A stretch of DNA of 64,000 bases from Escherichia coli 042. GTDB lineage: Bacteria > Pseudomonadota > Gammaproteobacteria > Enterobacterales > Enterobacteriaceae. This document shows, in pieces, positions 5,455-8,351 of the stretch. A program made the position numbers and the translations under genes. The stretch lies in assembly GCF_000027125.1 (NCBI RefSeq), contig NC_017626.1, one strand, 5' to 3'. Every line of letters starts with the position of its first letter. Position 1 is the first letter of the stretch. The notes beneath the pieces were generated by a model, which saw only the letters and a program-made list of their open reading frames with translations, searched no databases and was not told the origin of the DNA.

Positions 5455-6441
5455 GTGACCAGGACCAACCTCATCACCGGTTTTCTCGGCAGCGGGAAAA
5501 CCACGTCGATTCTTCATCTGTTAGCCCATAAAGATCCCAACGAAAAATGGGCGGTACTGGTTAATGAATTTGGGGAAGTCGGAATTGATGGTGCTTTGCT
5601 CGCCGATAGCGGCGCATTGCTGAAAGAGATCCCCGGCGGCTGCATGTGCTGCGTTAATGGTTTACCCATGCAGGTAGGGTTGAATACCTTACTGCGTCAG
5701 GGAAAACCAGACCGCTTGTTGATAGAACCGACCGGGCTGGGTCATCCGAAACAGATCCTCGATCTCTTAACCGCGCCAGTCTATGAACCGTGGATAGATC
5801 TGCGCGCCACCTTGTGCATTCTCGATCCACGCCTGCTGCTGGACGAAAAAAGCGCCAGCAATGAAAACTTCCGTGACCAGCTGGCTGCCGCAGACATTAT
5901 TGTCGCCAATAAATCCGACCGTGCGACGCCCGAAAGTGAGCAAGCGCTACAGCGCTGGTGGCAGCAAAATGGTGGCGATCGACAATTAATTCACAGTGAG
6001 CATGGGAAAGTTGACGGTCATCTTCTGGATTTGCCGCGTCGCAATTTAGCCGAGTTGCCCGCCAGCGCCGCGCATTCTCATCAGCATGGCGTGAAAAAAG
6101 GGTTAGCAGCGTTAAGCCTGCCAGAGCATCAACGCTGGCGTCGCAGTCTGAACAGCGGGCAAGGATATCAGGCCTGCGGCTGGATATTCGACGCTGATAC
6201 GGTATTCGACACCATTGGCATTCTGGAATGGGCGCGACTTGCACCGGTAGAACGCGTCAAAGGCGTGCTGCGTATTCCCGAAGGGCTGGTGCGAATCAAC
6301 CGTCAGGGCGATGACCTGCACATTGAAACGCAAAACATTGCGCCACCGGACAGCCGTATTGAGCTGATTTCCAGCAGCGAAGCTGACTGGAATGCCTTGC
6401 AGAGCGCGCTGTTGAAGCTTCGTTTAGCGACTACCGCGTAA
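5455..6441 (+). CDS. yeiR: COG0523-family zinc-binding GTPase YeiR
   Basis: 328 aa, GTG start, P-loop GFLGSGKTT near the N-terminus and a CxCC metal motif (GGCMCCVNG). Confidence 0.9.
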   Translation: MTRTNLITGFLGSGKTTSILHLLAHKDPNEKWAVLVNEFGEVGIDGALLADSGALLKEIPGGCMCCVNGLPMQVGLNTLLRQGKPDRLLIEPTGLGHPKQILDLLTAPVYEPWIDLRATLCILDPRLLLDEKSASNENFRDQLAAADIIVANKSDRATPESEQALQRWWQQNGGDRQLIHSEHGKVDGHLLDLPRRNLAELPASAAHSHQHGVKKGLAALSLPEHQRWRRSLNSGQGYQACGWIFDADTVFDTIGILEWARLAPVERVKGVLRIPEGLVRINRQGDDLHIETQNIAPPDSRIELISSSEADWNALQSALLKLRLATTA

Positions 6442-6479
6442 GGTTGCCTGCGTTTTTCAGTAAGATAATTAGAGAAAAT

Positions 6480-7193
6480 ATGATTAAAAATTTGCCGCAA
6501 ATAGTGTTGTTGAATATTGTCGGCCTCGCGCTGTTTCTTTCCTGGTATATTCCCGTTAATCATGGATTCTGGTTGCCGATTGATGCGGATATTTTTTATT
6601 TCTTTAATCAGAAACTGGTCGAAAGTAAGGCCTTTTTGTGGCTGGTTGCATTGACCAACAATCGCGCTTTCGACGGTTGTTCACTGCTGGCGATGGGAAT
6701 GTTGATGCTGAGTTTCTGGCTGAAAGAAAACGCCCCTGGCAGACGACGTATCGTGATTATTGGTCTGGTCATGCTATTAACTGCAGTGGTATTAAACCAG
6801 CTGGGTCAGGCATTAATTCCTGTAAAACGGGCCAGCCCAACATTGACTTTTACCGATATTAACCGCGTCAGCGAACTGCTCTCTGTCCCCACGAAAGATG
6901 CCTCACGAGATAGCTTTCCCGGCGATCATGGTATGATGCTGCTTATTTTTTCGGCATTCATGTGGCGTTATTTCGGCAAAGTTGCAGGCCTTATCGCCCT
7001 TATTATTTTTGTGGTTTTTGCGTTTCCCAGAGTAATGATTGGCGCACACTGGTTTACTGACATCATTGTCGGTTCGATGACCGTGATATTGATCGGTTTG
7101 CCCTGGGTGTTGCTGACGCCATTAAGTGATCGATTAATCACCTTTTTTGACAAATCACTACCGGGAAAAAACAAACATTTCCAAAACAAATAA
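6480..7193 (+). CDS. lpxT: lipid A 1-diphosphate synthase / undecaprenyl-pyrophosphate phosphatase LpxT (YeiU)
   Basis: 237 aa from the internal ATG, MIKNLPQIVLLNIVGLALFLSWYIPVNHGFW...; PAP2-type membrane protein; synteny. Confidence 0.88.
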   Translation: MIKNLPQIVLLNIVGLALFLSWYIPVNHGFWLPIDADIFYFFNQKLVESKAFLWLVALTNNRAFDGCSLLAMGMLMLSFWLKENAPGRRRIVIIGLVMLLTAVVLNQLGQALIPVKRASPTLTFTDINRVSELLSVPTKDASRDSFPGDHGMMLLIFSAFMWRYFGKVAGLIALIIFVVFAFPRVMIGAHWFTDIIVGSMTVILIGLPWVLLTPLSDRLITFFDKSLPGKNKHFQNK

Positions 7194-7604
7194 CTCACAG
7201 TAATTAACATCATCAGGGTTATTTTTATAGTGAGGATAATCCTGATGATGCGCACCGTGCTTTCATCTATCGAACGCAAAAATCATTCTCTAAGTAAATG
7301 AATGGATTGCATGCGCTTCACTCAATCGTACTTTAATTGACCAATCCCGCTTATTAACTTTCTGTATCACTTTTTCTTATAAAAAATCATGTAAAACCGC
7401 TCGCCAAGACCGCACCAATCGGGTAATCTCGAACTCGTTTTGCCTCGGCGGTAGATTATCCTCACAGCATATAATTTTGTGCGTTAGTCCACAGATTTGG
7501 CCTTAAGGAATTGTTTCAACATGCCCAGGTAATTAGTCTCGTGTCGCTTGGCATTTTTTTATAACGATATTTGTCGTTAAGGACTTCAAGGGAAAACAAA
7601 CAAC

Positions 7605-8171
7605 ATGGTCAAATCTCAACCGATTTTGAGATATATCTTGCGCGGGATCCCCGCGATTGCAGTAGCGGTTCTGCTTTCTGCATGTAGTGCAAATAACACC
7701 GCAAAGAATATGCATCCTGAGACACGTGCAGTGGGTAGTGAAACATCATCACTGCAAGCTTCTCAGGATGAATTTGAAAACCTGGTTCGTAATGTCGACG
7801 TAAAATCGCGAATTATGGATCAGTATGCTGACTGGAAAGGCGTACGCTATCGTCTGGGCGGCAGCACTAAAAAAGGTATCGATTGTTCTGGTTTTGTACA
7901 GCGTACATTCCGTGAGCAATTTGGCTTAGAACTTCCGCGTTCGACTTACGAACAGCAGGAAATGGGTAAATCTGTTTCCCGCAGTAATTTGCGTACGGGT
8001 GATTTAGTTCTGTTCCGTGCCGGTTCAACGGGACGCCATGTCGGTATTTATATCGGCAACAATCAGTTTGTCCATGCTTCCACCAGCAGTGGTGTTATTA
8101 TTTCCAGCATGAATGAACCGTACTGGAAGAAGCGTTACAACGAAGCACGCCGGGTTCTCAGCCGCAGCTAA
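7605..8171 (+). CDS. mepS: NlpC/P60 peptidoglycan DD-endopeptidase lipoprotein MepS (Spr)
   Basis: 188 aa, lipoprotein signal ending LLSACS, catalytic-Cys region GIDCSGFVQ. Confidence 0.92.
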
Positions 8172-8215
8172 TAAACCGTTTGGATGCAATCCCTTGGCTA
8201 TCCTGACGAGTTAAC

Positions 8216-8246
8216 TGAAAGCACTGCTTAGGCAGTGCTTTTTTGT
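8216..8246 (+). terminator. rho-independent terminator after mepS
   Basis: Hairpin aagcactgc/gcagtgctt followed by TTTTTTGTTTT. Confidence 0.65.
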
Positions 8247-8351
8247 TTTCATTCATCAGAGAAAATGATGTTTCCGCGTCTTGATCCAGGCTATAGTCCG
8301 GTCATTGTTATCTTTTAAATGTTATCGTAATTTCAGGAAATTAACGGAATC

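Follow-up and report, generated by a model that had tools for sequence, protein, structure and literature searches.

A conserved hairpin without a U-tract at the probable 3′ end of the yeiR–lpxT mRNA of Escherichia coli

The lpxT–mepS intergenic spacer

The genes yeiR, lpxT and mepS lie in this order on the + strand of the analysed stretch of E. coli 042 DNA (the window, 64,000 nucleotides), with an intergenic spacer between lpxT and mepS. Adding 2262374 to a window position gives the NC_000913.3 coordinate (the lpxT start is at 6480 here and at 2268854 there). The features of the locus are:

5455–6441, + strand: yeiR, placed by gene order at the locus.
6480–7193, + strand: lpxT, stop codon TAA at 7191–7193, from the ORF list and the MG1655 annotation; last gene of the yeiR–lpxT unit.
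7194–7604: lpxT–mepS intergenic spacer, 411 nt.
7203–7208, + strand: ATTAAC motif just 5′ of the stem, from the alignment consensus nnATTAAnnnnnATCATCAGGG and the conservation profile.
7208–7222, + strand: 5′ arm of the hairpin, CATCATCAGGGTTAT, from the repeat search and the fold; G7218 lies in a G·U wobble.
7223–7235, + strand: inner hairpin, from the fold; five AU/GU pairs (7223–7227 with 7231–7235) and an apical loop at 7228–7230.
7236–7250, + strand: 3′ arm of the hairpin, ATAATCCTGATGATG, from the repeat search, the fold and outer-stem covariation.
7253, + strand: mapped RNA 3′ end (Term-seq, Adams et al. 2021), 3 nt past the last paired base (…GAUGAUG-CGC-3′).
7254–7420, + strand: C-rich, G-poor stretch from the hairpin to mepS P2; candidate Rho-loading or termination zone, proposed from C/G.
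7605–8171, + strand: mepS, downstream of the spacer.

The spacer has no annotated feature in MG1655 or in any other RefSeq annotation of E. coli, and an Rfam scan of 6400–8300 at E ≤ 10 returned noise only, mainly miRNA and snoRNA models.

In the 3′ half of the spacer (7360–7604), identity across 80 species reaches 90% or more in most columns; the amino-acid identity of LpxT, at 65–80%, is far below this level. This half includes the known mepS promoters P2 and P1, with transcription start sites (TSSs) at 7436 and 7545, as well as the pairing site of OxyS, placed here at about 7581–7591. Folding of the mepS leader (7436–7615) is not unusual (z = −0.05). Term-seq 3′ ends also occur at 7599 and 7601 (NC_000913.3 2269973 and 2269975), 4–6 nt 5′ of the mepS start codon; they are present in all three growth conditions of Adams et al. 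2021 and scored as not Rho-dependent, and neither a hairpin nor a U-tract immediately precedes them.

A long stem past the lpxT stop codon

The inverted repeat begins 14 nt 3′ of the lpxT stop and consists of two 15-nt arms that are 93% complementary and separated by 13 nt. The initial annotation had described an imperfect inverted repeat at 7205–7252 with a loop of about 14 nt; the repeat exists and that span encloses both arms, the loop being one nucleotide shorter than described. Repeats of this quality (arms of at least 15 nt, no more than 1 mismatch, loop of 3–20 nt) occur 5 times in the 64-kb window, compared with 0.13 hits per locally shuffled window, which excludes a chance origin.

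The single mismatch, G7218 opposite T7240, becomes a G·U wobble in + strand RNA. This RNA is predicted to form a 20-bp stem closed by a 3-nt loop, with a folding energy of −25.8 kcal/mol (z = −5.5; none of 200 shuffles as good), and folding the 124 nt at the 3′ end of the transcript still leaves the hairpin as its terminal structure. The minus strand folds nearly as well, at −23.8 kcal/mol. Only 5 of the 20 pairs in the stem are G-C, each 15-nt arm holding 5–6 G/C. The stem is not followed by a U-tract: its tail, CGCACCGTGC, has 1 T in 8 nt, and the terminator scan makes no call, in keeping with the earlier remark that the repeat lacks a U-tract and is not an obvious intrinsic terminator.

Conservation and covariation among Enterobacteriaceae

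The comparative set comprised 80 species-level Enterobacteriaceae loci gathered through MepS. In 79 of the 80, lpxT lies upstream of mepS, and the spacer has a nearly constant length of approximately 413–416 nt. A hairpin of −14 kcal/mol or better, no more than 130 nt past the lpxT stop, was found in 62 of 80 sequences (the window and 79 loci), against 6.2% of dinucleotide shuffles. Its position is nearly fixed relative to the mepS start, approximately 365–397 nt before it (locus coordinates 2103–2136).

For the analysis of covariation, 61 nt from 65 sequences were taken at fixed coordinates relative to mepS and aligned by sequence alone, so that circularity was avoided. The outer stem, in which columns 14–22 pair with columns 49–57, covaries across the 65 species. 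Changes on both sides were present in all 15 of the tested pairs; doubly changed cells numbered 119, the shuffles giving 49 ± 5 with none of 500 reaching 119, and the covariation score was 0.318, compared with 0.10 or less when the partners were slid. Compensatory changes from TCAGGG/CCCTGA are exemplified by TTAGGG/CCCTAA in Kosakonia, TCAAGG/CCTTGA in Yokenella, TCGGGG/CCCCGA in Pseudocitrobacter and TGAGGG/CCCTCA in Leclercia.

The spacing of the arms differs between genera, from about 4 nt up to at least 13 nt, with loops mostly of 4–6 nt and a loop approximately 9 nt longer in Escherichia, and the orthologous stem is 10–13 bp in most other genera. The inner hairpin is not conserved beyond Escherichia; in the alignment, this genus has approximately 9 additional nt there. 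The variable spacing argues for a hairpin and against an operator bound by a dimer. Together with the compensatory changes in the arms, it leaves the protein-binding site suggested in the initial annotation unsupported. Counts of G·U and A·C cells (38 versus 42) do not identify the transcribed strand, which was therefore assigned from the gene context and the strand of the Term-seq end.

Most stems outside Escherichia read TCAGGGATC-N4-6-GATCCCTGA (Enterobacter, Kosakonia, Lelliottia and others; for example, locus L007, 2109–2132). These stems place two GATC (Dam) sites face to face, and E. coli is without them. The ATTAAC motif is kept in approximately 70% of the species at a variable distance from the hairpin: it adjoins the stem in Escherichia and Citrobacter and lies 5–6 nt further off in Enterobacter.

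The sequence that follows the orthologous hairpins differs between genera. At the same locus coordinates, the scan called a + strand terminator in K. pneumoniae, in a Kluyvera-like genome and in Cedecea, and a U-run after the stem can be recognized by eye in Atlantibacter, Buttiauxella, Siccibacter and other Kluyvera. The tail is U-poor in Escherichia, Citrobacter, S. enterica arizonae and most Enterobacter. Species that have a U-tract and species that lack one did not differ in downstream C/G (p = 0.29), a comparison in which the hairpin caller hid some U-tracts.

Copy number and variants in E. coli

Of 5,426 complete E. coli genomes, 5,425 carry the element at a single place (median 1), always between lpxT and mepS, and the 64-kb window holds no second copy even with 3 mismatches allowed. 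The 67-nt hairpin region differs from that of K-12 by 5–10% in 1,010 of the 5,425 genomes. At position 7218, K-12 has G (G·U) and strain 20A24 has C; the sampled alleles of O157, ST131 and others have T (U·U), and E. albertii has A, which gives an A-U pair. In the majority of E. coli alleles this position is mismatched, as U·U or C·U. The 7218 wobble position is a polymorphic hot spot (loci L082–L085 and L002–L004).

In E. coli 20A24 (NZ_CP147044.1, L085:1546–1562), an IS1A is inserted within the 3′ arm at approximately window position 7241, splitting the arm from the mepS side. Because 7218 varies and one strain carries IS1 in the 3′ arm, the hairpin, judging by these genomes, tolerates damage and is not essential; at least one isolate can dispense with it.

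A mapped RNA 3′ end at the base of the stem

Supplementary file 1 of Adams et al. 2021 (PMC7815308) lists an RNA 3′ end at 2269627 (+), or window position 7253, with a score of 1323.37 and the class ‘orphan’; the 61-nt flank given there is identical to the window sequence. The class follows from the distance to the lpxT stop, 60 nt, which is over the 50-nt cut-off for a ‘primary’ end (PMC7815308). The score is low, and the end appears in one of the three growth conditions, in the first block of the file, taken as LB at an OD600 of approximately 0.4. In the same data, the canonical mepS terminator ends approximately 8 nt past its GC stem core, within the U-tract (PMC7815308).

Transcription units defined by SMRT-Cappable-seq (PMC6131387) include an operon b2173|b2174 from a TSS at 2267795 and b2174 alone from a TSS at 2268825; no unit joins b2174 to b2175, and there is no TSS near the hairpin. 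The mepS TSSs of that data set, 2269810 and 2269919, correspond to window positions 7436 and 7545. They are 109 nt apart, which is the exact offset of the published P2 and P1 mepS mRNAs. The bicyclomycin-defined Rho regions of Adams et al. 2021 (PMC7815308) include none between 22694xx and 22700xx, where low expression of lpxT may limit detection.

The initial annotation had counted an RNA stability element among its readings, and would have set the repeat aside if no transcript ends or processing sites mapped here and the repeat were not conserved. An end is mapped at 7253, 3 nt past the stem, and the pairing covaries across Enterobacteriaceae; both bear out the stability element.

Origin of the 3′ end

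These observations make it probable that the hairpin is the 3′-terminal structure of the yeiR–lpxT mRNA. Our favoured reading, for which the balance of evidence is somewhat positive, goes further: the U-less hairpin defines and protects the yeiR–lpxT 3′ end, with Rho-dependent or diffuse termination downstream followed by trimming. The hairpin would be transcribed as the last structured element of the message, and RNA polymerase would most likely pass it and enter the untranslated C-rich, G-poor spacer, where it would be released either through Rho or through a diffuse and inefficient termination. The 3′-to-5′ exonucleases PNPase and RNase II would then trim the tail until blocked by the stem, leaving the 3-nt overhang. 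As a result, the lpxT message would be stable and the upstream operon would stay apart from mepS, which is independently promoted.

The composition of the spacer is consistent with such a release zone. C/G is 2.0 over 7251–7400 and reaches 2.9–3.2 in 78-nt windows at 7314–7411, the 99th percentile for the whole 64-kb window being 2.67. In E. coli, Rho-dependent transcripts end at steady state right after stable stem-loops that lack a U-tract; PNPase and RNase II make such ends by trimming, and the sequence beyond them has C>G (Dar & Sorek 2018, PMC6061677). We infer that Rho and exonuclease trimming, rather than termination driven by the hairpin, are the source of the end at 7253.

Termination by the hairpin itself is the alternative that survives best, although we consider it unlikely. 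The hairpin would be a weak, non-canonical intrinsic terminator whose long stem dislodges polymerase, perhaps with NusA or NusG, and the mapped end would lie at or near the release site. This reading would fit the canonical terminators at the orthologous site in several genera, the ends of transcription units in the interval from lpxT to mepS and the lack of a reported Rho region in the spacer (PMC7815308); in addition, some U-poor cases may be inefficient intrinsic terminators with Rho as a backup (Dar & Sorek, PMC6061677). However, the single T in the 8 nt after the stem, the silence of the terminator scan and the presence of only 5 G-C pairs in 20 speak against it, and so does the RNA end, which lies 3 nt past the stem rather than at the 7–9 nt usual for intrinsic termination.

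RNase III needs about 20 bp of duplex, a size that the E. coli stem, at approximately 20 bp, matches. The duplex could on this basis be an entry site for RNase III or another endonuclease, controlling decay of the lpxT mRNA or separating lpxT and mepS transcripts. Such cleavage is unsupported, because the mapped 3′ end lies outside the duplex and the orthologous stems are mostly 10–13 bp, and we regard it as improbable.

Many genera share the arm sequence (C)AUCAGGGAUC, whose conservation far exceeds that of the flanking spacer. Most genera other than Escherichia also have, approximately 15–25 nt past the lpxT hairpin, a Pho-box-like repeat, CTGTCAT-N4-CTGTCAY, at a fixed position −341 to −347 from the mepS ATG (loci L005–L078; around 2160–2177 in L008, L010 and L012). 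Of 81 sequences, 53 match it at 11 or more of the 14 positions and 8 at all 14, a score of 11 or more being reached in only 1% of random 400-nt window segments. A conserved TAAAAT/AAATGAAT block, which could be a −10 element, follows 12–13 nt past the Pho box (window 7296–7303). The box is decayed in Escherichia (window 7260–7277, CTTTCATCTATCGAACGC, 9 of 14). Among the sites in the PhoB ChIP-seq table for E. coli, none lies at this position in the lpxT–mepS spacer, and a literature search found no paper connecting mepS with PhoB. The sequences suggest that Citrobacter, Enterobacter, Klebsiella and Kosakonia have a putative PhoB-activated promoter upstream of mepS and that Escherichia has lost it.

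Given the conserved arms and the Pho box downstream, the hairpin could be a sequence-specific, conditionally read-through terminator or insulator, recognized by a protein or an RNA. We hold this to be quite improbable. If true, the hairpin would tune how much of the yeiR–lpxT transcription, which is related to zinc and lipid A, and of the signalling of phosphate starvation arrives at mepS, the gene of a peptidoglycan hydrolase.

A DNA-level palindromic operator overlapping a promoter TTAACA-16-TATAGT (7204–7231), firing towards mepS or a small ORF, is highly improbable. The promoter-like sequence matches at 10 of 12 positions, the conservation of the arm ATCAGGG/CCCTGAT is unusually high for a terminator stem, and an 18-aa ORF (ATG at 7245) is preceded by GAGGA. 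However, 1 promoter-like hit compares with 1.7 ± 1.2 in shuffles, the −10 lies inside the unconserved loop, and the TSSs listed by SMRT-Cappable-seq in the spacer are at 7436 and 7545, with none near 7238; the half-site spacing varies between genera and the changes in the arms are compensatory. We therefore rejected the promoter as being within chance. The small ORF (MMRTVLSSIERKNHSLSK), which starts in the 3′ arm, was likewise rejected, since its length ranges from 3 to 20 aa and the sequences are unrelated.

The remaining suggestion of the initial annotation, a REP-like remnant (or a BIME or other repeated element), has in its favour that the hairpin is an intergenic imperfect palindrome, and can be practically discounted for an AT-rich element that is positionally orthologous across genera and present once per E. 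coli genome, with no other copy in the window.

Comparison with known systems

REP/BIME extragenic palindromes act as 3′ mRNA stabilizers. The lpxT hairpin resembles them as an intergenic palindrome that, by analogy, would be able to block 3′ exonucleases, and differs from them in being single-copy, AT-rich and without the REP consensus.

With canonical intrinsic terminators, the hairpin shares a stable stem-loop directly past the gene and on its strand, as well as its position and hairpin lineage, the orthologues in Klebsiella, Kluyvera-like genomes, Cedecea, Atlantibacter and Buttiauxella having a U-tract. The E. coli copy is unlike them in the absence of a U-tract, in its few G-C pairs and in an RNA end 3 nt, rather than 7–9 nt, past the stem. 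Dar & Sorek 2018 (PMC6061677) predicted that terminators switch type through the gain or loss of downstream U residues. The comparison of 80 species provides a clean natural example, in which one orthologous hairpin has a U-tract in some genera and none in others. This example of the predicted switching between intrinsic and Rho-type 3′ ends is useful for teaching or as a benchmark, and comes as no surprise.

The closest counterpart is the class of 3′ ends described by Dar & Sorek (PMC6061677), of which the lpxT hairpin, a real, conserved and ordinary element, is probably a hitherto unannotated member. Its RNA end was already present in a published table, without interpretation; for annotation, the hairpin supplies the missing 3′ boundary of the yeiR–lpxT operon and accounts for the ‘orphan’ Term-seq end. 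It shares with the class (PMC6061677) a stable stem-loop past the gene, an RNA end right after the stem, a U-poor tail, C>G sequence downstream and a non-REP character. It differs in that its stem is unusually long (20 bp) and rich in AU and GU pairs, and in that Rho and trimming are proposed here from sequence and position.
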